Source: a virus. Taken from it: a stretch of DNA of 64,000 nt. The notes under the pieces are model-generated. The model did not search any database. It saw nothing but the letters and a program-made list of their open reading frames with translations, and had not been told where the DNA came from. The translations under genes were made by a program, and so were the position numbers. Below are positions 35,665-55,050 of the stretch, piece by piece. The DNA lies in the IMG/VR virus record IMGVR_UViG_3300023179_000044, positions 39,879 to 103,878 of that record; one strand, 5' to 3'. The stretch's first letter is position 1. Each line of letters opens with the position of its first letter.

Positions 35665-35815
35665 CGAGCTACCCGTGTTACTAGGGCTATCGAATAGAAC
35701 TAGTAGTTAATACCTACTCAGGTGAAAAAATGAAAAATCATACTAGGCAGTTTTCATTTGGGCTGGCAACAAAAAACCCCCGATTTCTCGGGGGCTTTTG
35801 TCTAGGGGGACTTGA

Positions 35816-36214
35816 CTAATCTTCTTCGTCTTCGTCTTCGTCTTCGTCTTCGTCTTCACATTCACCCTCGCAACCCTCTACGCCACAAATGTAGCAAACT
35901 TCGTATTCAGTAGCACCTTGCTCAATAAGGCTCGTGTAGCCAGCGTTAGGGTCTTCGTGATTAGTCTCTACTGCCTGAATGAATTTTAGAGAGCAAGACT
36001 TCGCAAACCACTCTTTTAGTATGGAGAGCATTTCACTAGGGGTCTTCTCTTCGCAAGTGAAGAAACTATCTGGCTCTTCACCATAACCATAACCTTTTAC
36101 TTCGGCGACTTGCTCTTCGTCCATAAGAACATAGATTTTGTGGCAAGTGTCCCAAGTAATCGCCTTAGCGTCGTCTAGGGCGTATTCTACTTCGTCCCAG
36201 TCTATAACTGCCAT
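35816..36214 (-). CDS. Acidic hypothetical protein with Cys cluster and (ED)n tail
   Basis: Own promoter, GATAGG RBS and terminator; (TCTTCG)n at 35820-35857. Confidence 0.75.
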   Translation of the reverse strand: MAVIDWDEVEYALDDAKAITWDTCHKIYVLMDEEQVAEVKGYGYGEEPDSFFTCEEKTPSEMLSILKEWFAKSCSLKFIQAVETNHEDPNAGYTSLIEQGATEYEVCYICGVEGCEGECEDEDEDEDEDEED

Positions 36215-36407
36215 TTCGGTTTTCCTATCTGTTTAGTAACCCTTGTTGGCTACATACTTACTATAACCCTTACTGCCGACATTTGTTCCAACTTCTAATC
36301 AAAAATTAGTAGTTACTGGAAAAAATGAAAAATGTTATTTAGGCTTTTATTTTTTCTGGGCAAAAAATAACCCCCGATTTCTCGGGGGCTATCTGTGAAG
36401 TTTTTGA

Positions 36408-36761
36408 TTACAGGGTTTTTAGGTAATCGTAAAGGGTTTCCCTAATCGTAGCAAAATACGCTTCTGGATAGGCTTCCTTCATCATCTCTCGGTCAAAATG
36501 AGTGTTACGACCATTGACCTTCTTGACGACTACCACGCCACCGATAGTGCCTTCTACGAAGTCACCTAAGATTTCTCTTAGGGCTAGTTCAGCAAGTTCC
36601 TTCTGCTCTTTTGCTAGTGCTTCTGCTTTCTTAGCGTTCCTAAACTGGTTTAGGATTTCTTGGGCTTCTGGGGATAGTTCTAGTGATACTGACTTTGTTG
36701 CCTTTGTTGCCTTTTTTGCTGGGGCTGACTTTTCAGCCTTCTCTATTTTTTCTTTTGGCAT
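36408..36761 (-). CDS. Hypothetical protein, paralog of 41035-41376
   Basis: Near-identical C-terminus KKVNGRNTHFDRE.MKEAYPEAYFATIRETLYDYLKTL. Confidence 0.8.
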   Translation of the reverse strand: MPKEKIEKAEKSAPAKKATKATKSVSLELSPEAQEILNQFRNAKKAEALAKEQKELAELALREILGDFVEGTIGGVVVVKKVNGRNTHFDREMMKEAYPEAYFATIRETLYDYLKTL

Positions 36762-36935
36762 TTTTTTCCTTTGTTAGTTTTTCGGCTGGTTGCCGTGTTA
36801 CTAGGCTACGATACACCACCGACATAGAGCAACACTAATAGCAGTTTTTTTGTATCTACTGGAAAAAATGAAAAATGTTATTTAGAGTTGCTGGCTAAAA
36901 ACTTGGGGCTAAGTCTATTGACCTAGCCCCAGATT

Positions 36936-37115
36936 TTATCTAAAACTTTTTATTAGTTTGTAGATGGCAGTTAGGGGTCTGCTCTTACGCCTATGACGAC
37001 CACCTGACTTATCTAGCATTTTGTAAGACCAGTTTTGAGTTTTATACGAAACTTTGAAAGATAGTCCGTGTATTGCTCTTAGCAACTTGTATGCCAAATA
37101 GTATGCCAGTTTCAT
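36936..37115 (-). CDS. Small basic hypothetical protein
   Basis: ATGA-coupled to 37112-37366; start revised. Confidence 0.5.
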   Translation of the reverse strand: MKLAYYLAYKLLRAIHGLSFKVSYKTQNWSYKMLDKSGGRHRRKSRPLTAIYKLIKSFR

Positions 37116-37366
37116 TTGACCGATACCTTTTCCCACTGGTCTTTGTTATCAACTAACTCTTTTACATCTAGCGAGATTTGATACCACGCTTGGAATAGCA
37201 TTAGACCATAAACATCTAGGGTTAGACCAGTTGAGCCATTGTAGAGATAACCCTTTGGCAGTTCCAGCGTTGCTAGACCATCACTATAAAAAATAGTTAT
37301 GCCATTATCTTTTGCTAGGTTTATAGTCTTTACTATGTCCCCAGTTCCAAATGTTTTCTTAGCCAT
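37112..37366 (-). CDS. Hypothetical protein
   Basis: GATAGG RBS and promoter upstream. Confidence 0.65.
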   Translation of the reverse strand: MAKKTFGTGDIVKTINLAKDNGITIFYSDGLATLELPKGYLYNGSTGLTLDVYGLMLFQAWYQISLDVKELVDNKDQWEKVSVK

Positions 37367-37551
37367 TTGAGTTTGTTCCTATCTTTTAGGGGGTCTGCTG
37401 GTTGCTGACCCGTGTTATCACTCTACACCTAAATAGAAAAACACCACTACTTTTACTTAGTTTTTTAGAACTACTGGAAAAAATGAAAAATAGTTCTGGC
37501 ACTCATCTAATCAAAAAATACCCCGTCAAACTGACGGGGCATTTTTGCGAC

Positions 37552-37782
37552 CTAACTATTCAGGCTATTCATTAGGTCAAACATTATCCAGCAAGGCTCA
37601 CACTTGACGGACTTACTGGCTTGACTTGGACTAGGGGGATTAGATTTGAGATTACGACCACAAAGAGAGATTACAGGCTCTAAGGGCTTACCAGTTTCAT
37701 CTAAGGCTACAAGATGTCTAATGGACTTAGGGGGTCTAGTTCCAGTTGTATCTGGCGAGATGTCTGTTAGGGCTTGGCTCAC
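37552..37782 (-). CDS. Small Cys/His hypothetical protein
   Basis: H...LCG...CEPC pattern; GTGA-coupled. Confidence 0.55.
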   Translation of the reverse strand: MSQALTDISPDTTGTRPPKSIRHLVALDETGKPLEPVISLCGRNLKSNPPSPSQASKSVKCEPCWIMFDLMNSLNS

Positions 37783-38009
37783 TTGGCTTCACACTCCCAG
37801 CAAGCAGGGGAGTAATCACTATAAAGTGATACCCCGTGTTCGCAGTAATCGGTTTTACGCTTGCGTTCCAGAACTTCGGACATCTGGTCTATCATAGCCA
37901 GCAAGCGTTCAGGGTTGCCACCCAGAGAGAGTTGGCGTTGGGCTTCTTGGATAGCATAGCCCAGAGTTTCGGCAGAGTAGTTAGCGTAGGGGTTGCTAGG
38001 TGTAGTCAT
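37779..38009 (-). CDS. Small hypothetical protein with C-terminal CEH...CWEC
   Basis: Tiled in the unit; start revised to follow the 38011 stop. Confidence 0.6.
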   Translation of the reverse strand: MTTPSNPYANYSAETLGYAIQEAQRQLSLGGNPERLLAMIDQMSEVLERKRKTDYCEHGVSLYSDYSPACWECEAK

Positions 38010-38010
38010 C

Positions 38011-38154
38011 TTAGTTGTCGCTTTCATCTAGGGTCATTTCGACTTCGGTTAGGTGGCACTCTCGGCATAACTGGGAGTTGCTATCGGGGGCTAGGGTTGG
38101 GAACACTTTACCAGCGATAAAGTTTCCACAGTCGGCACAAATTGGGGTGGTCAT
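38011..38154 (-). CDS. 47-aa zinc-finger-like protein (not in the ORF track)
   Basis: MTTPICADCG...LCRECH with GATAGG RBS directly after a PafBC-type promoter. Confidence 0.6.
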   Translation of the reverse strand: MTTPICADCGNFIAGKVFPTLAPDSNSQLCRECHLTEVEMTLDESDN

Positions 38155-38306
38155 TGAGTTCCTATCTATCGGGGGGCTTGCTCGTTGCTTGCCCGTGTTG
38201 CCAGCCTAGCAAATACCACCGACATCATCTACACTTCTCACCAACTTTTCACCAAAGAGTTCCTGGTACTGGAAAAAATGAAAAATCTTATTTGGAAATT
38301 CTAAGT

Positions 38307-38655
38307 AAAAAAACTTCCCCTAGTATCCGCAGGGATTTCTAACTAGGGGAAGTTTCGGGCTATCGCTTGGAGATAGGATTTGGGCAAGGTATAACAAGCG
38401 ATAACCCTAGTGAGTTTGTAAGACCTGCCCTTACTCTTAGGGGGCGACCCTAAGCGACCTAATCAGTATGCCTACTGACTTGACTAACTCTCCCGACCTT
38501 GTAGATGTCTGCTCTGTGTATTTGTGGAAACCGACTAACCCGACCTTATAGATGTCTGCTCTGTGTTTCCTGATTCGGCGAACTCTTCCTAGTCAACTGA
38601 TTCGCCCTGACTCGCTAGTTTCCAACAATACTTACCTAGGAAGTAAGTGGACAAC
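38307..38655 (-). ncRNA. Putative ~350-nt structured non-coding RNA occupying its own unit
   Basis: Own box (38718), promoter TTGCGT-N16-TATTCT (38662-38689) and terminator; no credible ORF; at least 6 hairpins and a 28-nt direct repeat. Confidence 0.7.
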
Positions 38656-38803
38656 AAGATAAGAATACAGGTTTTTATGATTTACGCAACTTTTCACGAA
38701 AGTTTTTTGTATTCACTGGAAAAAATGAAAAATCTTATCTAAGCGATTTTTTGGCTAAAAAAATAAGTCCCCGATTTTCAGGGGACTTACTTTTTAGATT
38801 TGT

Positions 38804-39151
38804 CTAGGAGACACCGATTACTGACTTTATCCGTGTTATCTGGTTTTCGGTTAGGCTCTTGGTTTCGCCATTGTCGTCTGTTCCACCTGTAATAACTGCG
38901 TCTCCGACAATAATGTCTGTTTTGCCATAAGACATTTCCCAGAGTTTCGTTGCTAGAAAGTTGAAAGGCAGTCCAGTTAGTTTACCTTCCTCATTTATCC
39001 AGAGAGTTAGTCCAGCGAGTTCTTGGTCTAAATCTACTGCTTCTATCCAACCTGCTACTGCTTTACTTAGGAAATCATACTCCTTAGAGTTCTCTACCTG
39101 CTCGGTAGAAACTCCACCATCAGCCTTGATAACTAATACTTGCTTAGTCAT
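38804..39151 (-). CDS. DUF3846-like protein
   Basis: V.GWIEAV...W.NEEGKL.GLP.N..AT...IVGD.V.TG. Confidence 0.8.
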   Translation of the reverse strand: MTKQVLVIKADGGVSTEQVENSKEYDFLSKAVAGWIEAVDLDQELAGLTLWINEEGKLTGLPFNFLATKLWEMSYGKTDIIVGDAVITGGTDDNGETKSLTENQITRIKSVIGVS

Positions 39152-39359
39152 TTTGACCTGCCTATCTGTTTTGGTAGCCCGTGTTGACTACATAAGTAAT
39201 CTACTACTATCAACCGACATTTGTTCCAACTTCTAACTAAGTTTTGTATCTACTGGAAAAAATGAAAAATCTTATTTAGACATTTTGCTTCTAGTTCATC
39301 TGGGCAAAAAATAAACCCCTAGATTTTTGGTCTAGGGGTCTATTTATTTTTGAGTTGAT

Positions 39360-39473
39360 TTAGAGCCTGTCCCTGCTCTGCTTGCTCTGCTTGATGTCCC
39401 TGCTAATGCCACCGATAACTGATAACACTGATAGCACTAAATAAACACCAATAAAGGCGTATTGCCACCACAT
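39360..39473 (-). CDS. 37-aa membrane peptide
   Basis: TAATG-coupled; MWWQYAFIGVYLVLSVLSVIGG. Confidence 0.5.
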   Translation of the reverse strand: MWWQYAFIGVYLVLSVLSVIGGISRDIKQSKQSRDRL

Positions 39474-39715
39474 TAGTTCCACTCCCCTAATGCTCTTAGC
39501 ATTTCGTTAGGTGAAACTTTTAGGGCAACGCATAACTTAGCAAGTGTATCTGCTGGAAGTTGGCGTTGCTTGTGGAAGTATCTGCTAAGGCTGGACTTTT
39601 GTAGTCCTGTTGCGATAGCAAACTGATTTAGCGACTTATAGCCACGCTTAGAATACTGGGCGACAAACCACTCCCAAGTAATCTCACTCTGGCTCTTGAC
39701 TTTTGCTTTTGGCAT
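39473..39715 (-). CDS. XRE-family HTH regulator
   Basis: SLNQFAIATGLQKSSLSRYF..QR.L....L.KLC.AL.VSP. Confidence 0.8.
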   Translation of the reverse strand: MPKAKVKSQSEITWEWFVAQYSKRGYKSLNQFAIATGLQKSSLSRYFHKQRQLPADTLAKLCVALKVSPNEMLRALGEWN

Positions 39716-39913
39716 CTATCTCTCCTATTTTTGAGTTGGTCTATTTGACCTACTAACCACATTACACCAGTTTCCCGAAAAGCAACACCCGTGTTATGAG
39801 TTTTTGTATCTACTGGAAAAAATGAAAAATCTTATTTAGGATTTCAGTTGTTAGTTTGTTTGGGATAAAAATAACCCCCTAGATTTAGGGGGCTACTTTT
39901 TTAGGGGGGGGGT

Positions 39914-40228
39914 CTATCTGGACAATAGGGCGATAAATCGTCTAATGGTCTTTTTATCCGTGTTTTGTTCTAGGTATCTCAACACGCTATCAACTGGCAG
40001 ATTTCGGGCTATTCTGCCGACTAATACTGATGTGGTTTGGCTAATGTATGGTGTGTGGAAATACATAATCTCACTGGTTCGGGTGTTGTAGTCTAAGATT
40101 TTGGTTTTCCAGTGTGTTATCTGGTAGATGTCCCCTAACTGCTCGGCAGTTATGGTTTGGTTGTAGTTTGTAAAGGGGGCAAGGTTTTTGATTTGTTCCC
40201 CGATTTCGTGGTTTGGTAGGCGTTTCAT
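39914..40228 (-). CDS. Hypothetical protein
   Basis: ATGA-coupled; Y....SQTTS motif. Confidence 0.65.
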   Translation of the reverse strand: MKRLPNHEIGEQIKNLAPFTNYNQTITAEQLGDIYQITHWKTKILDYNTRTSEIMYFHTPYISQTTSVLVGRIARNLPVDSVLRYLEQNTDKKTIRRFIALLSR

Positions 40229-40398
40229 TGGGACATCTCCACTAATACAATAGCGTTACGAAGTTCGGCTATACGGGCTTTGACTAGGGTAATCTGTTTT
40301 TTCTCGGTTAGCGTTTCTAGTTCAGCAATTAGTACTTGCTCACGCTTTTTCAGATGGGCTAATGGGTTGATAACCATTGGCAGTTTATTTTCTGTCAT
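40225..40398 (-). CDS. Small coiled-coil hypothetical protein
   Basis: Start revised to lie downstream of the promoter at 40443-40464. Confidence 0.55.
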   Translation of the reverse strand: MTENKLPMVINPLAHLKKREQVLIAELETLTEKKQITLVKARIAELRNAIVLVEMSQ

Positions 40399-40623
40399 TT
40401 CAGTTTCTCTATCTCTAAGGGTAGCCGTGTTGCTACTCATCAACTATAACCCTAACAACTGACAAAAGTTCTGACTATCTGACAACTACTGGAAAAAATG
40501 AAAAATGTAATCATAGGTTTCTGGCTTCTGGGCTGGTTTGGATTTGATTTGGATAAAGAAACCCCCCCTGAAACCCAACTTGGACAGGGGGGGTTTTTGA
40601 GTGTGGCAGACACTCGGCTGGAT

Positions 40624-40836
40624 TTACTTGACTTTGACCCAACGGCAAGTCGTAGCGAGCAAGTTATCGTAATCGCCACTTGTGGCTTCTACTCTATACT
40701 GCTCAATAAGTTCTGGCGACACCTTAGCGTCTTTCATTGCTCGCATTACACGAGCAAGAATAGCAAAGGCATTTCCATCTTCACCGACTAACTTGACGGC
40801 TTTGACTTCTGGCAACTTTACAGACATCTCTAACAC
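40624..40836 (-). CDS. Hypothetical phage protein (LVGEDGNAFAIL...SGDYDNLL)
   Basis: Motif familiar from small phage/MGE proteins; own unit. Confidence 0.75.
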   Translation of the reverse strand: MLEMSVKLPEVKAVKLVGEDGNAFAILARVMRAMKDAKVSPELIEQYRVEATSGDYDNLLATTCRWVKVK

Positions 40837-41034
40837 CCCACTTCCCTATCTCTAAGGTAGCCCCGTGTGGCTACATAAGTAATCTACACTTTCCCACCGA
40901 CATACCCCAACACTTTTCACCAAGATTTAGTATCTACTGGAAAAAATGAAAAATGTGTATCTCTAATCTTGCGATTTTCTGCTAAAAAAATAAACTCCCC
41001 TAGATTTAGGGAAGTTTATTTTTTTTGGTCGGTG

Positions 41035-41376
41035 TTAGAGAGTTTTCAGGTAGTCGTATAGAGTTTCCCGAATAGTTGCGAAGTAGGCTTCTGGATAAGC
41101 CTCTTTCATTAGTTCTCGGTCAAAGTGGGTGTTTCTGCCATTGACTTTTTTCAGGACTACGACACCATTGATGGTGGCTTCTAGGCACTCTCCTAGCAAC
41201 TCACGCAGGGCGAGTTCTGCTTGCTCTTTGTCTGCTTTGGCTTGGGCTTCGGCTTTTTTGGCATTACGGAAACTGGTTAGCAACGCCATACCCTCTGGCG
41301 AGAGTTCTAGCGAGTTGGATTTCTTGGCAGTTTTTTTAGTGGTCTGCTTTACACTTTCAGTTTTAGTTTTTGGCAC
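41035..41376 (-). CDS. Hypothetical protein, paralog of 36408-36761
   Basis: Shared sequence; promoter TTGTAA-N17-TACACT upstream. Confidence 0.8.
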   Translation of the reverse strand: MPKTKTESVKQTTKKTAKKSNSLELSPEGMALLTSFRNAKKAEAQAKADKEQAELALRELLGECLEATINGVVVLKKVNGRNTHFDRELMKEAYPEAYFATIRETLYDYLKTL

Positions 41377-41493
41377 TTTTTATCCTTTGTTAGTTTCGGG
41401 GTTATTCCCGTGTTATCAGTGTAGCCTAATAATCAAGATTTTACAAATAAACTCCCTAAGATTTTTAGGGAGTTTATTTGACTACTTGATTTT

Positions 41494-41652
41494 TTAGTAA
41501 TCGCTCTCGTCTGTAAAGTCGGCAGACATAGCCAACTCGCCTCTGGCGTTCATCTCGCTTTGAGAAACAACCTCATCTTTATCGCAGATGTGCTCTTGGC
41601 TCGCAGGGTAAGAAACCCAACCCTCGCAGGTCTCGCAGTATTCGTGTATCAT
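41494..41652 (-). CDS. 52-aa acidic Cys/His protein (not in the ORF track)
   Basis: MIHEYCETCEGW...HIC; GATAGG RBS; terminator follows. Confidence 0.55.
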   Translation of the reverse strand: MIHEYCETCEGWVSYPASQEHICDKDEVVSQSEMNARGELAMSADFTDESDY

Positions 41653-41850
41653 TTTTCACCTCTTTCCTATCGTGTTCCCAAACTAGCACTAAAACGGATC
41701 TCCATAAAGAAAAAAACTAGCAAGTTGCTAATCACTGGAAAAAATGAAAAATGTTATTTAGGATTTCCTAGTTTAGTTCTGGGCTAGATAAAGCAAAGGG
41801 CTAGACTACAAAAGTAATCTAGCCCTAAGTTCGCTAGGAGATAGGGGAAA

Positions 41851-42334
41851 CTAGCGAAACCTTCTCGGTGTTCGTAATCTACGATAAACCGAGTATTGAC
41901 CTATTACATAACCAGCGACCAGACAGGCAACAGCAAGCGTGATAACTGCTATCAACTCAATAAGATTAGACATCACTTCCCCCTTTCGCTAATCGCCAAT
42001 ACCAAAGCACCAAAGATTAGGATTAGAGCCAGAGAGCCACCTATAACTAAACTTTCCGTGTTCATAAAATAAAACCCTGTTATTAGAGAGTAGCACCCTA
42101 ACGCCATTAGTAAATACTTCATTACTTATCTTTTCCTATCTTTACAGCGTCTAAGGCAAACCAAATAGATACCACTACACCAAGAACCAGACCATTAGAC
42201 CAAACTTCATCTATGGTGTGAGCCTGACCAGCACCATTGGCAACCAGTAAAGCGTAAGTGATAACCCAAGCACCAGCAACTAGGGGAGTGATTAGCAACC
42301 CTGCCAATGCTCTAAAAAATACATACTTATTCAT
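41851..42334 (-). CDS. Three coupled small membrane-protein genes (42122-42334, 41973-42122, 41851-41973)
   Basis: Hydrophobic ORFs with stop/start overlaps. Confidence 0.6.
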
Positions 42335-42526
42335 TTCAGTTCCTATCTATCAAGTAGCCTGTGTTGGCTACATAAATAATTTATACCCAAATAGCAAAAA
42401 ACTCAACAAGCAACAAAAAAATAACTATCTACTGGAAAAAATGAAAAATGTAATCTAGGGTTCGGTGTTTTCTGGGCTGGACAAAAAAATACCCTGCCAC
42501 TTGGACAGGGTATTTTTAGTTTTTAT

Positions 42527-42919
42527 TTAGTAGCAATAAAGGCAGGTTGAGCCATAACAGGCGTGTTCATCAGCGTATCGTTCAGGGCAGATTTCTCTGG
42601 CTTGTTCGTGTATTTGGATAGATAACTTTTCTAGCAACCTTTTTACCTGCCACATAGATTTTAGGATTTCATCTATCGTGTTTTGGGTCTGCTCTGGCAT
42701 CTCAACTAACAGGGCAGGTTCGCCATTGGTATCAAGCGTTAGGGGCAAGTTCAGCAACTCATCTCTATACTTCTCGACCTTGCGAATTATGGTGTCTATT
42801 TCGCTGGTGTCTTGGCTGGTGTCGTAAAGAATAGCACCATAGGGGCTTTCTAGGATTTCCACCTGCTCTGCTAGTTTTTCTAGGGCGATAGCGTTGCTCT
42901 CTGCTAGGTTCTCTTTCAC
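42527..42919 (-). CDS. Hypothetical protein with C-terminal Cys cluster
   Basis: GATAGG RBS; terminator follows. Confidence 0.6.
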   Translation of the reverse strand: MKENLAESNAIALEKLAEQVEILESPYGAILYDTSQDTSEIDTIIRKVEKYRDELLNLPLTLDTNGEPALLVEMPEQTQNTIDEILKSMWQVKRLLEKLSIQIHEQAREICPERYADEHACYGSTCLYCY

Positions 42920-42927
42920 TGGGTTTC

Positions 42928-43128
42928 CTATCTCTCGGTGTTCTCGGTGTTCTTGCTTTCAGCAAGGATTTCTTGGGTTCTAGCCAAAATAACTTTTATC
43001 TGCTCTGGCGTTAGGTGAGCAAAAATAAAGCCATAAGCGTATGGATAAACTACTTCATCGCTTTTACCTGCTAACCTAAGGTTTTCTATGACCTGAATAA
43101 TCGGGTCAATGGTGGTCTGGTCTGCCAT
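42928..43128 (-). CDS. Hypothetical protein
   Basis: GATAGG RBS before the revised ATG at 43128. Confidence 0.6.
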   Translation of the reverse strand: MADQTTIDPIIQVIENLRLAGKSDEVVYPYAYGFIFAHLTPEQIKVILARTQEILAESKNTENTER

Positions 43129-43320
43129 AATCGGTGTCCTATCTGTCGGGGGCTTTTCCATAAAACAACTATAACCCTAACCACTGACGAAGCTTCACTA
43201 CTTTTTATCAAAAAAAAATAGATACTGGAAAAAATGAAAAATGTTATTACTGCTTTTTTTCTTGGACAAAAAATAAACCCCCCTAAGTTCAGGGGGGAGT
43301 ATCTTGATAACTAGGCTAGA

Positions 43321-43734
43321 TTAGTCATCTAAGGCTATTTCAGCGACCTCTAAGGTAAAGGTTGCCCAATACTCATCATGGCTAGACCTAACTACCTCTA
43401 ACACGCTGTAATCATCATTAGAGTAAAAGCGAAGTGTGAAGTCGCTATCTAGGCTAAGGTCGCTAATCAAGTTTTCAGGGTTGCTAATTTTATAGCCAGA
43501 GCGTCTATCCCAATTTAGGTTTTTAGCGTTGATTAGAATTGGAGTTTTCAGTTCATAAGAATTGGCAGTCATCCACTTTTCCAGCAAGTCAAACTTGATG
43601 TTATCTAAGTCATCTTGCCAGCAACCATAGCAGTCTTCACTAGGTTTTGATGTTTTAGTTTCTTCATCATAATCCTCACAAGAGCAAGTGTCGCTAAGTG
43701 TATAGCGAAGCGTTAGTTCAGTTTTAGTTCCCAT
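43321..43734 (-). CDS. Acidic hypothetical protein (CSC...CYGCW...SSHD)
   Basis: Own unit with AGGAG RBS. Confidence 0.7.
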   Translation of the reverse strand: MGTKTELTLRYTLSDTCSCEDYDEETKTSKPSEDCYGCWQDDLDNIKFDLLEKWMTANSYELKTPILINAKNLNWDRRSGYKISNPENLISDLSLDSDFTLRFYSNDDYSVLEVVRSSHDEYWATFTLEVAEIALDD

Positions 43735-46193: not shown

Positions 46194-46365
46194 TGGTGTT
46201 CCTTTCCAAGTTTGTTGATACAGATACACTAACACAGCCCACAGACATTTTTCTATTTTTATTTATTATCTAGTGGAAAAAATGAAAAATGTATTTCAGG
46301 TCTGGCTCATAAAAAGTTTGAGCAGTTTAGACACTTGCTCAGGTGTTTTCCTTTTCAGGAGTGGT

Positions 46366-46881: not shown

Positions 46882-47084
46882 TTTTCGTTTTCCTTTCGCT
46901 AGGGTTATTTATTTGATAACTGAAATCTACCAAACAAACTTCCAAAAACGCAACTTATTTCATAACTTTTTGATAAACATTTTTCTTGCTTTGGTTATTA
47001 GTGGAAAAAATGAAAAATCTTTTCTTGACATTTTTGGGGAAAAAGTTAGTTTTCCCTTATGGGAAAAACTAACGATTAGAAATA

Positions 47085-47282
47085 CTATTCAGTTTTAGTT
47101 TCAGGTTCATCATCACCAAAATCCACCAAGTCATAGGCGAGTATCTGGCGACCTACCTTGTCGTAGATGACTTCATAAATCTCTCCGTCATCTCCATTTG
47201 CTTCGGCTTCCGTCTTTGCTTCCAAGAGCAAGGCAAGCAGTAGGTTTGCTTCTGCTTCTGTTAGGCGTTTAGGGTCTTTCAT
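47085..47282 (-). CDS. Small acidic hypothetical protein
   Basis: ORF ending just before a terminator. Confidence 0.5.
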   Translation of the reverse strand: MKDPKRLTEAEANLLLALLLEAKTEAEANGDDGEIYEVIYDKVGRQILAYDLVDFGDDEPETKTE

Positions 47283-47350
47283 CTGCTATCCGTTAGTTGT
47301 TGGTCTGGTCTAGTCTGGTCTAAGGTCTATCCGTCAGGTCTGGGCAACTA

Positions 47351-47641
47351 CTATGCGAGCCGACTTGGTTGGCTGTCCGTCAAAAGTTGCTCGGCTGTAT
47401 CTGGCACTCTAAATCCCATACGCAAGCCGACTATCACTACAAGTTCAGCCGTGTCCATACCAAGACACTTGGCGATTTCATTTAGAACTTCACTACTCGC
47501 TTCTTTTCTACCCTGTTCTAGTTCCCAAAGGTAGTTATGTGAAATCCGTGCCTGTGATTTGTTTATGGTTTCTCGCAGAGTTAGTTGGTTCTTGTATCGG
47601 TGTTCGGAGATAACTTCTCCTAATGCTTGCCTGAATAACAT
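47351..47641 (-). CDS. ClgR-like XRE-family transcription regulator
   Basis: LFRQALGEVI...R....LTLRE....A.IS..YL.ELEQGRKEASSEVL..IA..L resembles actinobacterial ClgR. Confidence 0.75.
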   Translation of the reverse strand: MLFRQALGEVISEHRYKNQLTLRETINKSQARISHNYLWELEQGRKEASSEVLNEIAKCLGMDTAELVVIVGLRMGFRVPDTAEQLLTDSQPSRLA

Positions 47642-47822
47642 TTGTTAGTCCAAGTCCTTTCCGTGTTTTGAGTTGTATTCGTCAATAGCCTTACGAACTT
47701 CCACAGCGTAAGCAGGGTGTCGTGCCATAGACATCAGTAGTTTTTTCTTTTCCGTGCTGGTTAGAAAAATCCAGCGAAAGCGATACCAGAGTGTAATGAG
47801 CGTGTCTTTCATAATCTTTTCC

Positions 47823-48305
47823 TTACCTAATGAATACTACTGCTACTAATCCAAAATACACCAGATAGATAAATGGGGCAAGTCTGCCACCAATAATCTC
47901 TCGCCTACTACGCCACATAACGAGATACACACTTCCTATTACAAATGCCATAGATACAAGTGGCAATACTAGCCAGACCCAAGCGAACTTCCAAGATAGA
48001 GATAGACCCATAACTACAAATAACTTTACATCACCCATACCAATACTTTCCCATTTAGCGTGTATGTAAGTGAACACAGCAAGTAATACCACTCCAAAAA
48101 TAAGTGGCATAACTAATCCCCATAGCCACTCACCAGATACAACTGCGTAAGTAATGGCAGAGCCTAGCCAGAGCCAGATAGTAGGTAGCGTGTATTTGTT
48201 AGGAACTCTATTTTCCATAAAGTCCCAAATCAGTATTGGGATAGCAACTACGCATAAGTAGATAGCAGGAAGCGAAGCGATTATTTGTTGTTGTTGTGTA
48301 TTCAT
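47823..48305 (-). CDS. Prepilin peptidase-like (A24) membrane aspartic protease; leaderless start at 48305
   Basis: WDF...RVPN and GMGDVKL catalytic Asp motifs; multiple TM helices. Confidence 0.8.
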   Translation of the reverse strand: MNTQQQQIIASLPAIYLCVVAIPILIWDFMENRVPNKYTLPTIWLWLGSAITYAVVSGEWLWGLVMPLIFGVVLLAVFTYIHAKWESIGMGDVKLFVVMGLSLSWKFAWVWLVLPLVSMAFVIGSVYLVMWRSRREIIGGRLAPFIYLVYFGLVAVVFIR

Positions 48306-48501
48306 AAATCCCACTATACAAGTTAGGTGCGACATTTTACAAATCTTTTTTGGCGTGTTTTATTATTTAGTGGAAAAAATGAAAAATCTTATGAGCCAAA
48401 AAAACTAAAAAAAAACGCTGGTAGATAAACGAGAAAATCTACCAGCATTTTTTCACTTAGAAAGGAGTGATTATTTATTTATGGGTGTTGCTTGGTTCTG
48501 G

Positions 48502-48873
48502 TTAGAGAACATCAACTCGTAGAGTTGGCTCGCCAGCACCTTTGGCGACCCTGTAAGGTTCTAGCAGAGAGTAAAGTTCAGGATTTTCTCTCTCCAACTT
48601 ATCAAGGTCAAGTTTGGCAGGACTAGGGATAAGTTTGATAGACAATAAACGCTTACCCTTAGCGTCAGTTGCTACCAAATCAGATGTGATAGAGCCAACA
48701 GCGTCAAGAATAGCCTGTCTTGCTTGGTCAGACATTTCCTTTGCTTGCTTACCTAAATCACGACCATTACGCAGGTTTGCTACCTGCTTTTGTATGGCTG
48801 GTTTTAGAACTACTACCTGTGGGGTAGAAGTGCTAATGCTTGTAGTGCTTTGGTTCTTAGTTGCGTTTCCCAT
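48502..48873 (-). CDS. Hypothetical protein, distant relative of the 36408/41035 paralogs
   Basis: Helix, then AILDAVG...LD.DKLERENPELY pattern. Confidence 0.6.
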   Translation of the reverse strand: MGNATKNQSTTSISTSTPQVVVLKPAIQKQVANLRNGRDLGKQAKEMSDQARQAILDAVGSITSDLVATDAKGKRLLSIKLIPSPAKLDLDKLERENPELYSLLEPYRVAKGAGEPTLRVDVL

Positions 48874-48977
48874 TTGGAGTTCCTTTCGTTAGATTACCTT
48901 TGGGTGTATTGCTCTAATAGTAAATCACGATTTCTAAAATCTCGCAAGTTTATTTGATAACTTTTTGATAAACATTT

Positions 48978-49335
48978 TTAGGGAGTTTCTACCTGCTGTG
49001 GCTCGCCACACTCATAACAAGTTATGTAGCCAAGTCCGTCCCCAACAGGTGTTATCTCAAAAGTATCTACTGCTTTTAGTCCACACTCCGAGCAGTTGAT
49101 TTCAGTTTCCAGCGTCAGGGCTGTCTTGCTAGTCCGTTGGTTGCTCATACTCGTCCCAGATGTCTTGTCCGTCAATAAGGCTAAGGTCAGACCCGTTGTC
49201 CCACTTTACACGAATAGTCTTAGACCCCCACGGGTCTATGTATTCACCACGCTTTACTCCAAGCGAGCCGACTTTTAGATTTGTGTAGGGGTCGTCAGTA
49301 TGGACGAGCCGAACTCTGATTATTTGTTCCGTCAT
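48978..49335 (-). CDS. Two small genes: 49129-49335 (DUF4314-like) and 48978-49148 (zinc ribbon)
   Basis: RVRLVH.DDPY..L..G..G....D..G..I.VKWDNGS.L.LI.G.D; CSEC...CYEC. Confidence 0.65.
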
Positions 49336-50135
49336 TAGTTATCCGTTTCTGGTATCGGGTATAAACGAACTCCGTTTTCATCTTTGACTATGATAGTGGA
49401 GAACTCATCTACTACTAAACTATCCACCTGTTTATCTGCTAGTTCCCACGCCTGTTCAGGATTTTCGGCTATGACTTTGTATGTCCGTGTAATCTCAACA
49501 AAGAAATCTTTTACTTTTCTTGGGCAGTCCTCATACCAGTTTTCAGTTTCCTCGTCCCAAGCACAGACACACCCGTCCTCGTTATCTCGTTCCACATAAT
49601 CGGTATGGCAGTTTGGTATCCCCCACTCCTTAGTAAGCACTAACTCGCCATTTTCACCAGAGAACTCAGCCCCCCAGCCCTGTTCTTCTTCACTACAAAA
49701 CTCAAAAGATAGTTCTGGGTGTTGCTCTACCATAGCCACAAATACAGGTTCGGGAATAGACCAAGCAGTAGAGAAGTTCATAACAAGTTTAGAAGTTTTG
49801 TCTTTTTTGTTGATAGTGGTATTACCAGAATAATCGCAAGCGTCCCATTTGGTATCCCAGTTTTCATTGTTCCAGTTATACCAGTTGGTAGGAGTGTCGC
49901 CTTTTCTCTCGCCATTTTCCCAACCATTAGTGCCAAAGTATTCGCCACTCTCAACTGCGTCCTGTGGTGGTGCTACAAAGTTCCAGAACGACAACTCTAC
50001 TTCGGTGCTATAAACTACCTTGCCAGTTTCTTTATCAAAACTATCTGGGTGTGGGGCTGTTGCCTTGTCGTAAAAAGTTTCTACATCTTTGATAGAGCCA
50101 GTAATAGTTATGTTGTTATAGACCCAGTTAGGCAT
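49335..50135 (-). CDS. DUF1281/YubB ferredoxin-like domain protein
   Basis: MPNW..N.I.I.G...WY.W...NW.TKWD...F.TAWS.P...EE. Confidence 0.75.
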   Translation of the reverse strand: MPNWVYNNITITGSIKDVETFYDKATAPHPDSFDKETGKVVYSTEVELSFWNFVAPPQDAVESGEYFGTNGWENGERKGDTPTNWYNWNNENWDTKWDACDYSGNTTINKKDKTSKLVMNFSTAWSIPEPVFVAMVEQHPELSFEFCSEEEQGWGAEFSGENGELVLTKEWGIPNCHTDYVERDNEDGCVCAWDEETENWYEDCPRKVKDFFVEITRTYKVIAENPEQAWELADKQVDSLVVDEFSTIIVKDENGVRLYPIPETDN

Positions 50136-50147
50136 TTCTACTCCTTA

Positions 50148-50465
50148 TCATTGGAAGTTGTCCAGTATCTCTTGGATTTCACTTTCGCTAAGTCCACTCT
50201 CTATTCCACACTTACGGACATTTTCAGCAGTTTCCATTTTTAGCAACTCTAACCTGTCTGCTAGTGGGGTCATACCTATACGCTTGGCTATCTTTGTTGC
50301 TGTGATAACTGCTTTATAGGTGTCTGGGTCAGCGTAGCCAGTTTCAGTAAAACTTTCTACCAAAGCCCCAATGATACTTAGAGATAAAAGAAATAGCCCT
50401 GTTTCATCAGAGTTCTCAATGATTTCATCTAAATCTGGGTGGTCGTTTCCACAATGGTCGCACAT
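50148..50465 (-). CDS. Hypothetical protein; start revised
   Basis: GAAAGGACA RBS before MCDHCG. Confidence 0.65.
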   Translation of the reverse strand: MCDHCGNDHPDLDEIIENSDETGLFLLSLSIIGALVESFTETGYADPDTYKAVITATKIAKRIGMTPLADRLELLKMETAENVRKCGIESGLSESEIQEILDNFQ

Positions 50466-50742
50466 TTGTTTTGTCCTTTCAGTAGTGCGTTGTTTGTTTG
50501 TTGTGTCTAGTAAAGCATAGTTGATTTCTTTTAGCAAGTTATTTCATAAAGATTTTTTGGCGTGTCTGATTTGATAATGGAAAAAATGAAAAATCCTATT
50601 CAGCCATTTTTGGTAAAAGCGAACCCCTGATACCCGAAAGGACAGGGTTTGGTATCAGGGGTTCTAGTCCGTTTGTAGAGAACCTACTAGGAGTTGGGGG
50701 GACAAGGGCTTCGGCTCTATCCACAAACGGAGTTCTTATGTT

Positions 50743-52527
50743 CTAAACACCACCAACCTTTTCTAATGCTCTGGTGGCAGACTTACCGATAGTGTTGGCG
50801 ATTTCATTTACATCAAGTCCTGAAAGAACCACGCCATTATTTCCAACCAGAAGTGGTGGTGTATGGGCGTAGCAACCAGCAGGAACTATCCAAAGAACAG
50901 CCACGCCATTATCGGCACACATCTTTACAAACTCTTTGGCATTTCTAGTTTCGTCATCTGTGTATTGTCCGTCAGAAACTACAACCAACATACGAATACC
51001 AGAACCATAAAGTAAGTCTAGGTGTCCGTCTATTGCCTGAAAAGCCTGTCCAAAAACTTCTGTTCCGTCTGGGGCTGTCCAAACTGAAACCTGTTCTAAC
51101 TTTTGACCAAGTTTCAGAGTAGCAAAAACATCATTACCAAAATAGACCATACCAGTTCTAGCCTGAATACGCCTACCTGCTTCTGATAGAACCCAAGCAG
51201 TAGTAGCCATACTTTCCATAGCACCACTCATAGAGCCTGAAATGTCCACCATTACGCCAATAGTTAGTTCTGGGTCGTCAGTATGCTTACGCTTAGTTGC
51301 TCTCCACGCTGGTAGGTCAGAGTGAATACCCTTAGACTTCATAGCCAAGTTCTGAATAGCAACCCTAGTTTTTAGGCGACCCTGTGGAAATACCGACTTT
51401 ATTTCGGTAATAGACCTTTCACGATACTTTGCCTTTTCTAACATCTTGGAAAGACGAACAGCGTTTGCTCTTTCAGCAGGTTTAGGTGGTCGTTGATTTT
51501 CCAGTTGGGAACGACTAGAACTATCACCATTTCCAGTTGCGTTAGTAAAAACTTTACTGGCTTCTTTTTTGGACTTATTTCTTTGTTGCTGTTTGGAGTT
51601 ATGCTCTTGTAAAGTTTTGCTATCTTTTTCTTTGCCCTGTTGTTCGCCTAACTCTTTCTCAACATCACTAGCAGAGTTTTCTGTGTCTGTGTCCATAGCG
51701 TCAATGAGTTCTGTTCCAAACCCACTTTCGCCTTTTTCGCCTTTTTTGCCAGTTGGGAACTTACAGCCACCTTTTCCGTCTGGGTCAGCCTTGTCTAAAA
51801 GTTCTACCCACTTGGTAGCAAGTTCTGTTGCTCGCTTGATTTGGGAACACTCTAAACGCTGGAACTCATACCAGATAGAACGCAACTCGTCAAATAGTTC
51901 TTGACCAATAGCACTTATTACTTTGGAGTATGTAGAACTAACATCAGAGATTTTTAGAACGCCAGCGTCCACTCTTGCCATAGCCAAAGCACACGCAACA
52001 GCAGATAAGCGAACATCAGATAGGGCTTCCACGCTTGCTTCGTCCATACCTTGTAATGCTAGTTCCATAGCAGAACATCTTAGGAATACTTGATTTTCTG
52101 GCATAGCGATTACGCCAAATCTTTCTATTCTGCTTTCATCTAAAACTTGGAACGCCTGAAATACAGGTTCAGACATAGTGTCTAGTTTTGCTTGTTCCCA
52201 AATAGAAAATCTAGCGTGTAGTGCTTCGTGATAAATAATACCTGTGGCACTAGCCCACTCAAACTGATTACTTCTATCTCTCAAATCACCCACAAACTCT
52301 GGTGTTGCCCAAGTTCCAAAAGCAACTGGTATGTTGATTTCCATTTCAGCACTTGTCTTGATAAAGCAAGCAGTATGACCTATTCCTGCGTCAGAGCCAG
52401 CATAGACAACTATGTCGCCCCTGATAGCCCAGTTATTTACTACTTCTGCTATTTGCTTACAAGTTTCTAGCCACTCTTTCGGAGTTTCGCTAGTTCGTGT
52501 ATCTAATCTTGATACATAATGAGCCAT
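50743..52527 (-). CDS. HExxH metallopeptidase-like plus VWA domain protein (MoxR partner)
   Basis: IYHEALHARFS...LDE.RIE; MIDAS DISGSMS and VVSDG. Confidence 0.85.
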   Translation of the reverse strand: MAHYVSRLDTRTSETPKEWLETCKQIAEVVNNWAIRGDIVVYAGSDAGIGHTACFIKTSAEMEINIPVAFGTWATPEFVGDLRDRSNQFEWASATGIIYHEALHARFSIWEQAKLDTMSEPVFQAFQVLDESRIERFGVIAMPENQVFLRCSAMELALQGMDEASVEALSDVRLSAVACALAMARVDAGVLKISDVSSTYSKVISAIGQELFDELRSIWYEFQRLECSQIKRATELATKWVELLDKADPDGKGGCKFPTGKKGEKGESGFGTELIDAMDTDTENSASDVEKELGEQQGKEKDSKTLQEHNSKQQQRNKSKKEASKVFTNATGNGDSSSRSQLENQRPPKPAERANAVRLSKMLEKAKYRERSITEIKSVFPQGRLKTRVAIQNLAMKSKGIHSDLPAWRATKRKHTDDPELTIGVMVDISGSMSGAMESMATTAWVLSEAGRRIQARTGMVYFGNDVFATLKLGQKLEQVSVWTAPDGTEVFGQAFQAIDGHLDLLYGSGIRMLVVVSDGQYTDDETRNAKEFVKMCADNGVAVLWIVPAGCYAHTPPLLVGNNGVVLSGLDVNEIANTIGKSATRALEKVGGV

Positions 52528-52643
52528 TTGTTTTGTCCTTTCGTTTGGCTAGTAAAAGTAAATCATACATTTTTGTTTTCGTCAAGGGGTAGGGAGTGCT
52601 AAGTTTTTTACGCCTAGCACTCCCTATTTAGTAGGACGAACTA

Positions 52644-53651
52644 CTAAATCTTTGCTGGCTTACACTCATCATCACCGAATACTCTACGGAATACATCAGC
52701 GACAACTACTCTGTCTATTTCTGGGGCAGAAGCAAGCAAGTTTCCAATAGCCCACTTCATACCAAACAGATTAGCAACATCACGGAACGCAAGCAGTTCT
52801 CGCATTTGTGGCGACCAAGATACTTCACCTGCTAATCGCTTCTTAGACAGATTTTGACCTGCCGAAACTGCTGGTGCTGGAACGCCTAACTTCTTAGCAA
52901 GCGACCAGTCAGTAGTCATTTCTACTTGGATAGTGAAGCGAGATAGTAAAGGCTCGGACAAGCGAACACCAACAGCGTTAGGGTTGGTAGCACCTACTAC
53001 ATAAAAACCTTTCTTGGCTTTTACTATCCCCCTTTCTGGGTTGGCTGTGATTACAAGTTCATCTCTGCCGTCCATTAGACCATAGACCAAAGACATAACC
53101 TTTGGGTCAATAAGTCCAACTTCGTCAATAAGTAGAACTTTGCCCTGCTCTACTGCTTTGGTCAAAACTCCGTCCACCCACTCAAAACTTCCACTTGGAG
53201 TTTGGACATAGCCACCTAAGAAGTCAGAAACTTCGGTGTCGCCTGTTCCCAATAGGGTATAGAGTTCATCTGGGAAACTTGCTTCTACGAGAGCAGTTTT
53301 ACCACAACCTGCTTCACCATAGAGCAGAACATACTTACCATTTGCCCTAGCAGTTTTTAGAACTTCTATGTCGGAGTGTTCGCCCCACATACGAGAGTAG
53401 TAGTAATCACCATTTGGTCGTATGTATTTTTCGGCACTTACCATAGGTTCTACCACTTTTGTTCCAACCTTTGACTTTGTTATTGCTGTTCCTGCTTTTG
53501 CTCGCAAGTTTGCCCTAGCACTATTGGGCATTAGGGTTTCCATAATAGCAGGGATAGGCTCTGCTTTTGTGGAGTGTAGGACTACACCTTTGATTAGTGT
53601 TTCTAAATCTTTGTGTAGTTCTGAAATGTTTTTTATTTCTGTCTTTGCCAT
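52644..53651 (-). CDS. MoxR/CbbQ-type AAA+ ATPase; start revised to 53651
   Basis: GEAGCGKT, LLIDE, ATNP, LLSRF; adjacent to the VWA gene. Confidence 0.9.
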   Translation of the reverse strand: MAKTEIKNISELHKDLETLIKGVVLHSTKAEPIPAIMETLMPNSARANLRAKAGTAITKSKVGTKVVEPMVSAEKYIRPNGDYYYSRMWGEHSDIEVLKTARANGKYVLLYGEAGCGKTALVEASFPDELYTLLGTGDTEVSDFLGGYVQTPSGSFEWVDGVLTKAVEQGKVLLIDEVGLIDPKVMSLVYGLMDGRDELVITANPERGIVKAKKGFYVVGATNPNAVGVRLSEPLLSRFTIQVEMTTDWSLAKKLGVPAPAVSAGQNLSKKRLAGEVSWSPQMRELLAFRDVANLFGMKWAIGNLLASAPEIDRVVVADVFRRVFGDDECKPAKI

Positions 53652-53667
53652 TTTGATTTTGTCCTTT

Positions 53668-54180
53668 CTAAGATAAATAAACATCAACAGGAAAACCTGC
53701 GTCAGTTCTGGCTTTGGTTATTCTACGGATTAGAGCAGACGGAGTTTCGTGTTCTCTTATGTTTGATAGGTCTATGTTGCTTACTTCTACTACAAGTTTT
53801 CCTTGTAGTTTGGAGTAGCCATAAGAACCCTGCCTAACAACAGAAGCAACTACCTTTTCTACAAGGTCAGCAGTTATTTCAGTTGGATTTGCCTTTTCAT
53901 CTTTTGGCAAGTGGTGCTTAGTTTGCCATTGTCGTCTAGGCGACATCTTTCCAACAGCCCTGTATGTAAAGGCTACTGGAACTGCCTTACCCTTTTCATC
54001 TACACCAGCAGGGGTAATAATGATTTGGATAGTTTCTTTATCCCAAATGTGTTCAGGATTTGGCTTGATAAGTTCTAGGTAAAGACCCTTACCTACAACC
54101 TTTGGTGTTGCTGTTCCAGATTTTTCAGCAGTTGCTACTGCTTCTGCTGTTTCTGTATCTAGTGTTCCAAATGTTTCCAT
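53668..54180 (-). CDS. Hypothetical protein
   Basis: 170-aa ORF upstream of the AAA gene; promoter TTGACT-N16-TAAAGT. Confidence 0.65.
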   Translation of the reverse strand: METFGTLDTETAEAVATAEKSGTATPKVVGKGLYLELIKPNPEHIWDKETIQIIITPAGVDEKGKAVPVAFTYRAVGKMSPRRQWQTKHHLPKDEKANPTEITADLVEKVVASVVRQGSYGYSKLQGKLVVEVSNIDLSNIREHETPSALIRRITKARTDAGFPVDVYLS

Positions 54181-54288
54181 TTAGTTCGTCCTAACTTATT
54201 GGTTTATGTTGGACAGGATTATCCAACGAGTTCCACTTTACATCAACTTCTAATAAAGTCAAGTCCTAAGTGAAAAGTTTTTTGTTCG

Positions 54289-54864
54289 CTAATGGTGAAA
54301 ATCAACAGGGATTAGAAACTGCCTTTGTGGGGTTTCCTGAACACGCTTGTAAAAGTATTCCAAACTAGCGTCCCAGTTTTCTAAATCATAAATAGCAGTT
54401 TCAGAACACCACTCATTACTAAGAAGTAGCGATAGTTTTTTTATGTAATACATCACCATTGACTTCTTATAGTCGTTTTTATCTGGGTTATAGGGATAGG
54501 TAAATACATCTATACCTGCGTAATCAGTTCGTAGTGTTTTTCTAATGGCTTCTATTTCATTTATGCGATACCCTATAAAAGTAGTTATGACGCTATCAGC
54601 CAAAACAGGGTCGTCTGAAAAACATAAGTGATTTGGATTTTCAGATAAATCAACTTCCAACTTATTTTCTGCTCGTTGTTTTTGTTCTGGGGTCATAAAG
54701 ATTTCACCAGACCAGCGACCAGCGAAGTTTAGGTGGCTTGGGTTGCCACCTGCTTCGTGCCAGTCAGACCAGCGTGGCTCGCCATCTGAAAGTTTATCTG
54801 AAACGATACTAAATGCTTGTTCTGCGTTATCTGCTTCTACTAGCAGTAGTTGTATTGTGTGAAT
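54289..54864 (-). CDS. Hypothetical protein (WSDW...GRW...VDFH); probable ATT start
   Basis: Promoter at 54893-54921 and RBS at 54871-54877 point to ATT at 54862-54864. Confidence 0.6.
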   Translation of the reverse strand: MHTIQLLLVEADNAEQAFSIVSDKLSDGEPRWSDWHEAGGNPSHLNFAGRWSGEIFMTPEQKQRAENKLEVDLSENPNHLCFSDDPVLADSVITTFIGYRINEIEAIRKTLRTDYAGIDVFTYPYNPDKNDYKKSMVMYYIKKLSLLLSNEWCSETAIYDLENWDASLEYFYKRVQETPQRQFLIPVDFHH

Positions 54865-55050
54865 AGTAGTTCCTTTCGTAATGGATAGACAAAAGGTAGC
54901 ACAACTATTTATTAGACGCAAGTATTTTTTTAGATTTTTTCCAAATCATTATTTTTCATTTTTTCCCCCTAGCGAAAAAATCTTATGTAAGGTGTAAAAA
55001 CTTTTTATTATTCGTTAGTTGTTGGCAGAAGTCCTGCGTCTATTTTACTA

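Follow-up and report, generated by a model that had tools for sequence, protein, structure and literature searches.

An exact 16-bp box at the promoters of a gene array in an actinobacterial phage

What keeps a 16-mer identical in some twenty intergenic spaces of a single phage genome? The question is raised by the last 64 kb (hereafter the window) of the 103,878-bp virus contig IMGVR_UViG_3300023179_000044 from IMG/VR, in which a box of sequence ATTTTTCATTTTTTCC recurs in an array of short transcription units. Early-gene regulation in actinobacterial phages, above all in those of uncultured freshwater actinobacteria, is almost unknown. Based on comparison of sequences, the likeliest reading, at roughly even odds, is that one sequence-specific regulator, co-evolving with its phage lineage, docks on the box at promoters of the host RNA polymerase (RNAP).

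Copies and boundaries of the box

Of the 20 exact copies of the box in the window, 19 are minus-strand copies (the coding strand) spread from 36318 to 50594, and the remaining one is a plus-strand copy at 54951-54966, as an earlier note on this DNA had counted; the exact 16-mer occurs in none of 100 dinucleotide shuffles. Two minus-strand copies, at 35723 and 56305, have one mismatch each (final C to A), and a degenerate box with three mismatches lies at 54927, beside the inverted exact copy. The minus strand holds all genes of the array region, the whole genome being co-oriented, and 21 of the 22 exact or near-exact copies are co-oriented with transcription. All copies fall inside 20.6 kb of the 104-kb contig; a scan of the remainder of the contig found none.

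The per-position information content is maximal across the 16 box positions and returns to background 1–4 nt beyond either edge. Four metagenomic fragments (L063, L197, L233 and L258) carry the identical 16-mer in the same architecture, with flanks that differ from those in the window (G upstream, AGAAnAA downstream). The box is T-rich and forms a tandem direct repeat of 7–8 bp half-sites, ATTTTTC and then ATTTTTTC, with a T5 and a T6 tract 7.5 bp apart. It is intergenic, typically 17–48 nt past a terminator-like hairpin (present at most 95 nt upstream in about three quarters of the boxes), and a start codon preceded by a GATAGG-type ribosome-binding site (RBS) follows ~100 nt downstream. The array proteins are mostly ORFans, so that host takeover, the role proposed for the array earlier, is at most a possible one.

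Megablast of the array against GenBank phages gave no match, and nearly all matches listed in box scans of viral, metagenome and genome collections are single chance occurrences in AT-rich organisms. No actinobacterial host regulon with the box was among the matches listed, and these scans say nothing either way on a host factor. A literature search found no published account of the motif.

The box is coupled to the promoter downstream

The core promoters that follow the box are of several kinds (TGTCRGTG-N8-TAnnnT, TTGCnn-17-TAnnnT and extended -10), which indicates that the box is a separate upstream element. The first kind is found in 9 of 21 window units (36260-48330) and is common in the arrays of relatives, for example in 11 of 16 units of L273. 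It has the layout of the PafBC-dependent hybrid promoters of actinobacteria, in which a -26 element is combined with a canonical -10 (PMC8635444); what is confirmed here is the presence of the motif. In an independent manual assignment, the -10 hexamers lie 42, 43, 50–53 (12 units), 60, 62, ~65, 72 and 73 nt from the box, plus 30 nt for the box at 56305 and ~77 nt for that at 43954, and thereby reproduce the distances given in the earlier note. The co-oriented boxes, all on the minus strand, are listed below with the distance to the -10 in nt after the plus sign.

35723-35738, minus: box with one mismatch (final A), last array unit
36318-36333, minus: exact box; -10 TATAGT 52 nt downstream, with TGTCGGCA as -26-type element
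36861-36876, minus: exact box; TGTCGGTG-N8-TAGCCT at +52
37476-37491, minus: exact box; -10 TAGAGT at +50
38271-38286, minus: exact box; TGTCGGTG-N8-TAGGCT at +62, one turn further
38718-38733, minus: exact box; TTGCGT-16-TATTCT at +50, in a unit without an open reading frame (ORF) of at least 26 aa
39255-39270, minus: exact box; TGTCGGTT-N8-TAGATT at +51
39815-39830, minus: exact box; -10 TAATGT at +50, with an 80-aa Xre helix-turn-helix (HTH) protein in the unit
40491-40506, minus: exact box; TGTCAGTT-N8-TATAGT at +42, one turn closer
40939-40954, minus: exact box; TGTCGGTG-N8-TAGATT at +52
41737-41752, minus: exact box; extended -10 TGC-TAGTTT at +51
42434-42449, minus: exact box; TTGAGT-17-TAAATT at +50
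43227-43242, minus: exact box; CGTCAGTG-N8-TATAGT at +53
43853-43868, minus: exact box; extended -10 TGC-TAGCCT at +72, with two 11-bp copies of AAAAAGTTAT between box and promoter
43954-43969, minus: exact box, 101 bp upstream of box 43853-43868; TTGCTA-17/18-TACTAA at ~+77
45402-45417, minus: exact box; TTGATT-17-TAGACT at +60
46275-46290, minus: exact box; TGTCTGTG-N8-TAGTGT at +43
47003-47018, minus: exact box; TTGCGT-18-TAGATT at +73
48372-48387, minus: exact box; TGTCGCAC-N8-TATAGT at +53
50579-50594, minus: exact box; TTGCTA-17-TTTACT at ~+64
56305-56320, minus: box with one mismatch, first array unit; TTGACA-17-TATTTT at +30, also found in the consensus scan

An objective promoter scorer was run on every box in seven genomes, with the distance measured from the end of the T6 run, and 60 confident units were obtained. 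The -10 lies at 49–56 nt from the box in 67% of these units (p 1e-22 versus random anchors), while random anchors in the same regions gave a confident call in 11%, of which 12% fell in the 49–56 nt interval. The distance from the box to the upstream terminator is broad and smooth (17–66 nt, standard deviation 9.6). This combination of a tight promoter distance and a broad terminator distance indicates that the box belongs to the promoter, not to the terminator. With a coupling to the -10 far above that of random anchors, the box behaves as the selected cis element that had been proposed.

Related phages carry their own words at the same position

Relatives were fetched with the conserved AAA ATPase of the window (52644-53687) as a probe, which gave 65 loci, and their words were determined by a k-mer census. 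The more distant relatives have genome-invariant words of their own on the coding strand at the same position, in 10–16 copies each, including GTATTTATTTTTTCT, GTATTCATTTTTTAT and GTATCCACTTTTTT. GTATTTATTTTTTCT is found in L273, L274, L277 and L278, GTATTCATTTTTTATC in L283, GTATTCATTTTTTC in L337, and GTATCCACTTTTTT, which has one T-tract, in L279, L288 and L289. The invariant stretch per genome is 14–17 bp, C and G positions included. Different conserved words occur in other, mostly higher-GC lineages; in L297 and in Actinomycetia phage DSL-LC01, a relative from GenBank, the conserved words belong to the core promoter. The L274 record is a complete 153,711-bp genome with terminal repeats; its 15 boxes are all co-oriented and are confined to 131.4–145.1 kb (14 kb), near one end. 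The motif scan of the contig and of the complete relative thus places the box in the array only, and the census gives related lineages their own words.

Invariance within a genome together with divergence between genomes suggests a site that co-evolves with a genome-encoded reader. The earlier proposal that one protein acts through the box gains weight from this pattern, which points to one dedicated trans factor. The family amounts to a natural experiment, with dozens of promoters per genome sharing one exact word and a different word in the same place in each lineage. The reader protein and the spacing rules thereby become directly testable, and portable, orthogonal promoter parts for actinobacteria would follow.

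Several other words were seen in the comparison. L340 (Actinomycetia phage DSL-LC01, OQ999401) and L296 have TTCTAAAGATGTTATAAT-type words, repeated 11–16 times, in the -26 region directly before a consensus -10, a placement that suggests another kind of promoter adaptor, again specific to its lineage. At the corresponding site of L287 (16000-20500), between the terminator and TTGACT, lies a different upstream module, A-rich and ~45 bp long (AACAATTAATAAAAGCAGAATTAAAA..CAATTAAAAATA). The GGTAAAAAATG words of other lineages were considered as inverted boxes and rejected, as they consist of an RBS and a start codon.

Placement of the box relative to the core promoter

The 20 of the 60 confident units outside the main interval have spacings at ~33, 43–45, 60–67 and 75 nt, and none at 46–48 or 57–59. 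In the seven pooled genomes, tests of whether the spacings are in phase at 10–10.5 bp gave a V-test z of 2.8 and a gap-test p of 0.04, and a Monte Carlo test of periodicity in the window only gave p 0.013. The minority spacings suggest helical-turn steps, which are not strict (p about 0.003–0.04).

With the transcription start site (TSS) assumed 7 nt after the -10 hexamer throughout, the box centres lie near -51, -63, -72, -82 and -93, and the box ends ~27–35 nt before the -35 in most units. The sites of class I activators, for example those of CRP at -61.5, -71.5, -82.5 and -92.5, are also about one turn apart. Under the assumed TSS, the box centres, mainly near -72 and less often near -63, -82 or -93, fall where activators of this type sit, in line with the comparison to class I activators made earlier. 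The CRP site is a palindrome, whereas the box is an asymmetric tandem direct repeat with spacing modes 3–8 bp wide, and its activator is only a candidate.

A regulator docked at the box would act in a standardised early-promoter module that reads, in order, terminator, box, ~35 nt, host-RNAP core promoter (TTGNNN-17-TAnnnT or PafBC-like TGTCRGTG-N8-TAnnnT), 5´ hairpin, RBS and 1–4 small genes. The box centre would be placed ~60 bp before the -10 (near -72 under the assumed TSS), or one or two helical turns nearer or farther. From there the bound protein could contact RNAP, for example its alpha C-terminal domain, or bend the DNA onto it. About 22 units would be switched together through this protein, with activation likelier than shut-off as the sign of the effect. 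The tandem direct repeat would suit head-to-tail binding by a monomeric winged-helix protein.

The box might instead work as an intrinsic upstream element that needs no factor of its own, being read through its T-tracts by the alpha C-terminal domains of host RNAP or through curvature, and perhaps tuned by injected ADP-ribosyltransferase domains of a giant cargo protein, as with T4 Alt. The T-richness of the box with its T5 and T6 tracts would fit such an element, as would the phased A-tracts between box and -35, the 10-bp A-tract repeats before box 43969, the Alt-like match in the 3612-aa giant cargo protein and the use of either orientation at one promoter (see below), which is expected of minor-groove or curvature elements. 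UP elements, however, lie at -40 to -60 and are sequence-tolerant, whereas the words here comprise 14–17 invariant bp including C and G, differ between lineages and end 27–35 nt before the -35; T-tracts 7.5 bp apart are also out of phase for curvature. T4 early promoters served by Alt-modified RNAP and the SPO1 host-takeover module are arrays of strong host-RNAP early promoters with conserved A/T-rich upstream sequence, and they share with the present array both this layout and a phage that injects ADP-ribosyltransferase-type proteins. Their upstream regions are, in contrast, consensus-like, adjoin the -35 and have no lineage-specific exact words. We regard an intrinsic element as unlikely.

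The inverted copy and the transcription machinery

The exact inverted copy lies 52 nt upstream, on the minus strand, of the -10 of the promoter of a conserved operon:

54951-54966, plus: exact box, inverted, 52 nt upstream of the -10 of the minus-strand operon promoter
54927-54942, plus: degenerate inverted box with three mismatches, between the exact inverted copy and the -35
54893-54921, minus: promoter TTGCGT-17-TACCTT of the conserved operon
50743-54864, minus: conserved four-gene operon (210-aa protein, 170-aa protein, AAA ATPase, 594-aa protein), first gene from ATT 54864

The distance of 52 bp reported earlier for this copy is exact; the -10 from which it is measured belongs to the minus-strand operon promoter, and no convincing plus-strand promoter was found. 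At the syntenic promoter, L337 and L279 have two direct boxes 18–21 bp apart, and L278 has an inverted and a direct box 25 bp apart. The position of the box centre is therefore kept while its orientation is not, which fits a docking or bending site and counts against reading the box as a promoter or as a polar roadblock. In this operon the first gene has an apparent ATT start (54864), 5 nt after GAAAGGAA, and its homologs in relatives have ATG at the aligned position (MHTCQILLVEA).

Neither the contig nor the complete relative gave a match to sigma region 2 (PF04542), and searches of both for a tyrosine or serine integrase were negative too, a stoperator-domain repressor not having been searched for. 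On these two negatives, the family appears lytic and dependent on host RNAP. T7-like RNAP (PF00940) also gave no match in the contig and the complete relative, a search that carries no weight because the family control was silent. Outside the window, contig positions 6934-7410 encode a 158-aa WhiB-like protein with a C-terminal CxxC...CxxC extension, a gene that confirms an actinobacterial host, and relatives infect Actinomycetia. The phage, itself uncultured, appears to be a lytic phage of freshwater actinobacteria. A WhiB7-type AT-hook reading of the box was rejected, since an RGRP-type hook is missing from the WhiB-like protein of the phage, which is also encoded at a distance from the array. 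A sigma-r4-like HTH ORF was likewise rejected as a sigma factor; it adjoins the terminase and is probably the small terminase. The HTH proteins at 28862 and 31032, which adjoin terminase and lysis genes, look like packaging or late functions.

Lytic growth and dependence on host RNAP speak against both a phage-polymerase promoter and an immunity or stoperator role. In the former case, the box would be a promoter or loading site for non-canonical machinery, namely a phage RNA polymerase or sigma-like factor that would start just past the box, or a Q/AlpA-type antiterminator that would board there and carry transcription through the unit terminators. Genome-invariant lineage words are typical of phage-polymerase promoters, a terminator ends every unit of a wholly co-oriented genome, and the ACACG motifs and the inverted repeat between box and -35 would be transcribed. 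However, the distance from the box to the start is variable, the inverted copy would fire antisense, good host-type promoters follow the box at a fixed distance, and the complete relative gave no sigma region 2. Against an antiterminator stands the placement of the known Q and AlpA sites, which are found at the core promoter or inside it and not at -72. Machinery of this kind has, in our estimate, a slim chance of being the explanation.

As a stoperator-like roadblock or insulator, the box would bind a protein that stops leaked RNAP and so protects the next promoter or silences the array. The ~22 asymmetric copies, nearly all co-oriented, in short intergenic spaces just past terminators would suit this role, and a monomeric two-domain repressor that reads an asymmetric 13-mer is known (PMC9283540). 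The stoperators of Cluster A actinophages such as L5 are similar in that more than 20 asymmetric, lineage-specific copies are oriented with transcription in intergenic DNA (PMC9283540, PMC6550527). Those phages are temperate, and their stoperators are spread genome-wide and lose function on inversion (PMC9283540). The boxes, in contrast, are found in one array of a lytic family, are loosely spaced from the terminator and tightly from the promoter, and include an inverted copy that keeps its correct place at a promoter. The L5 analogy of the earlier note is not supported in view of these differences, and a roadblock is very improbable.

A candidate reader protein

Two HTH proteins come into consideration as the docking regulator:

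58758-59012, minus: 84-aa HTH_17 protein with a BldC/Xis-like predicted fold, candidate box reader, in the box-less operon upstream of the array
47351-47641, minus: 96-aa Xre-type HTH protein, inside the array, widely conserved, alternative candidate regulator

Co-occurrence across the loci singles out the HTH_17 protein: all box-bearing loci that extend over its position have it in synteny, and it is rare elsewhere; in the complete relative its gene lies ~3.6 kb from the genome end. Its AlphaFold2 (AF2) model, with a predicted local distance difference test (pLDDT) score of 80.7, has an extra long helix (residues 43–66). The best Foldseek matches are BldC (6ama) and the Xis of mycobacteriophage Pukovnik (4j2n), with probability 0.99 and a weak E value (~0.03). 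BldC is a monomer that forms head-to-tail oligomers along direct repeats rich in AT, where its wing reads the narrowed minor groove and the DNA is bent by ~50 degrees (PMC5859096), and D29 Gp36 is a phage-encoded regulator of the BldC/Xis-like kind (PMC12266134). A small MerR/Xis-like winged helix, head-to-tail on direct repeats, reading an AT-rich minor groove and bending the DNA, would be the likeness to both (PMC5859096, PMC12266134). BldC repeats are 9–10 bp long (AATTxxxxC) and degenerate, whereas the half-sites predicted here are 7–8 bp and invariant; Gp36 binds GC-rich repeats and represses (PMC12266134). Judged by its synteny and predicted fold, the 84-aa BldC/Xis-like protein is the best candidate for the box reader, with an unproven link to the box.

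A fuller scheme with a small but real chance would make the box part of an enhancer code private to these large lytic actinophages. A BldC/Xis-like protein, either immediate-early or injected, would assemble head-to-tail on the box, bend the DNA on the correct face and hand host RNAP to promoters that otherwise depend on PafBC, the DNA-damage activator of the host. Word and reader would diversify in the manner of immunity specificities, and the word would serve at the same time as a joint for trading cassettes.

Several points weigh against a docking regulator or against this candidate. Every spacing mode is 3–8 bp wide, the modes of lineage L283 (43–45 and 60–63) are 17 bp apart and mutually out of phase, and L063, which has the same box, is offset by ~2 bp throughout; the helical-turn steps of the earlier note thus retain moderate statistical support (z 2.8, p 0.013) and are not supported as a strict rule. 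The recognition helix of the HTH_17 protein (KTIYNWI) hardly changes between lineages whose boxes differ, the HTH_17 proteins of L274 and L278 are divergent although the box of these two is the same, and L275 has the protein and no box in its 54-kb contig. The fold matches are weak (E ~0.03) and the model has the long extra helix, and the repeat unit of BldC is 9–10 bp against half-sites of 7–8 bp. If the factor is made by the phage, some other DNA would have to be transcribed ahead of the array, unless the basal activity of the promoters is enough or the factor comes in by injection. The HTH_17 protein of L280 does group with those of L279 and L288, with which L280 shares its box. This co-variation of protein and box type is only partial and is not taken as proof.

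Unit order and cassette exchange

The order of the units is scrambled between the window and the same-box relatives L063 and L258 (blastn). In the window, the units run 42449, 41752, 40954, 40506, 39830 ... 38286 (boxes named by their higher coordinate). The order in L063 is 39830, 40954, 42449, two unrelated units, and then 41752 with the genes of 38286, and in L258 the unit of box 36333 is joined to genes that lie at 45.4–45.8 kb in the window. Each homology block opens exactly with box position 1 and closes with the stop codon. This comparison of unit order agrees with the idea, raised in the earlier note, that the box is a joint for cassette shuffling. In the absence of a site-specific recombinase, homologous recombination is the probable route of exchange, and the same exact word at the 5´ edge of each unit would make the box a homology patch for it. 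On these alignments, the box is also a PeSL-like cassette boundary.

The promoter early stem-loop (PeSL) cassettes of T4-type phages likewise consist of a terminator stem-loop, an AT-rich upstream part, a host-type early promoter and an RBS. They lie between small ORFan genes in a plastic region whose order and content are reshuffled among close relatives at the modules (PMC2839356, PMC4122927). In the present array, in contrast, the AT-rich part is an exact, lineage-specific 14–17-bp word at a quantised distance from the -10. PeSLs also belong to T4-like myoviruses with sigma70-type or Mot-type promoters, whereas this is an actinophage in which many promoters have PafBC-like -26 elements instead of a -35. 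The promoter-terminator cassette model of phage genome plasticity is thereby extended beyond T4-type phages to an unrelated group.

The box could be mainly a PeSL-like recombination site, a short identical patch with no regulatory reader. The different unit order in L063 and L258 and the homology that runs from box position 1 to the stop codon are what such a site would leave, and PeSLs are composite terminator/promoter repeats implicated in shuffling (PMC2839356, PMC4122927). Sixteen bp is, however, short for homologous exchange, and no tyrosine or serine recombinase is present. Recombination also leaves unexplained the tight, quantised distance to the -10, the double boxes at the conserved promoter and the distinct exact words of the lineages, and we consider it an improbable sole function. 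A docking regulator would account for the promoter coupling, with cassette exchange as a second role of the same word.

Other sequence features of the array

A 760-bp ORF-free stretch (window 43981-44417) lies just upstream, on the minus strand, of the tandem boxes 43969 and 43868. It contains ~12 copies of the 10-bp A-tract TCTGTAAAAA, the 9/18-bp repeat GCCTAAAAC and three 44-bp repeats. From its repeats, this stretch looks like iterons and bent DNA, a candidate replication origin flanked by box promoters.

The unit of box 38733 (38320-38655, minus) has a good promoter and a terminator and no minus-strand ORF of at least 26 aa. It contains two copies of a ~28-nt repeat, ACACAGAGCAGACATCTAyAAGGTCGGG, and gave no Rfam or tRNA match, with a fold z of only -1.4. 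The unit could encode a non-coding RNA or a micropeptide.

Many units (36260-43200; also in L063 and L258) have a hairpin directly after the -10, at the predicted 5´ end of the mRNA, with compensatory changes in the stem (GTAGCC/GGCTAC, GTGAGC/GCTCAC, GTAAGC/GCTTAC) around an AACACG loop. The hairpin gives way, in other units and lineages, to an (A/G)ACACG motif between box and -35. In many units, the stretch from box to -35 holds an inverted repeat, AACTTC-GTNA-GAAGTT, that extends into the -35 (e.g. 38690-38710, 39225-39245) and is conserved in L063, L284 and L328; it looks like an operator for a dimeric, possibly Xre-type, regulator, apart from the box.

In the box-less first operon (60715-60751), the extended -10 TGC-TAGACT precedes CTTGACAAATCATTTGTCAAG, a perfect palindrome of 21 bp that lies immediately upstream of the RBS and is likely an autoregulatory operator. 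Further upstream of this operon, in the divergent intergenic region, are two ~50-bp TTAGCA...TGCTAA repeats.

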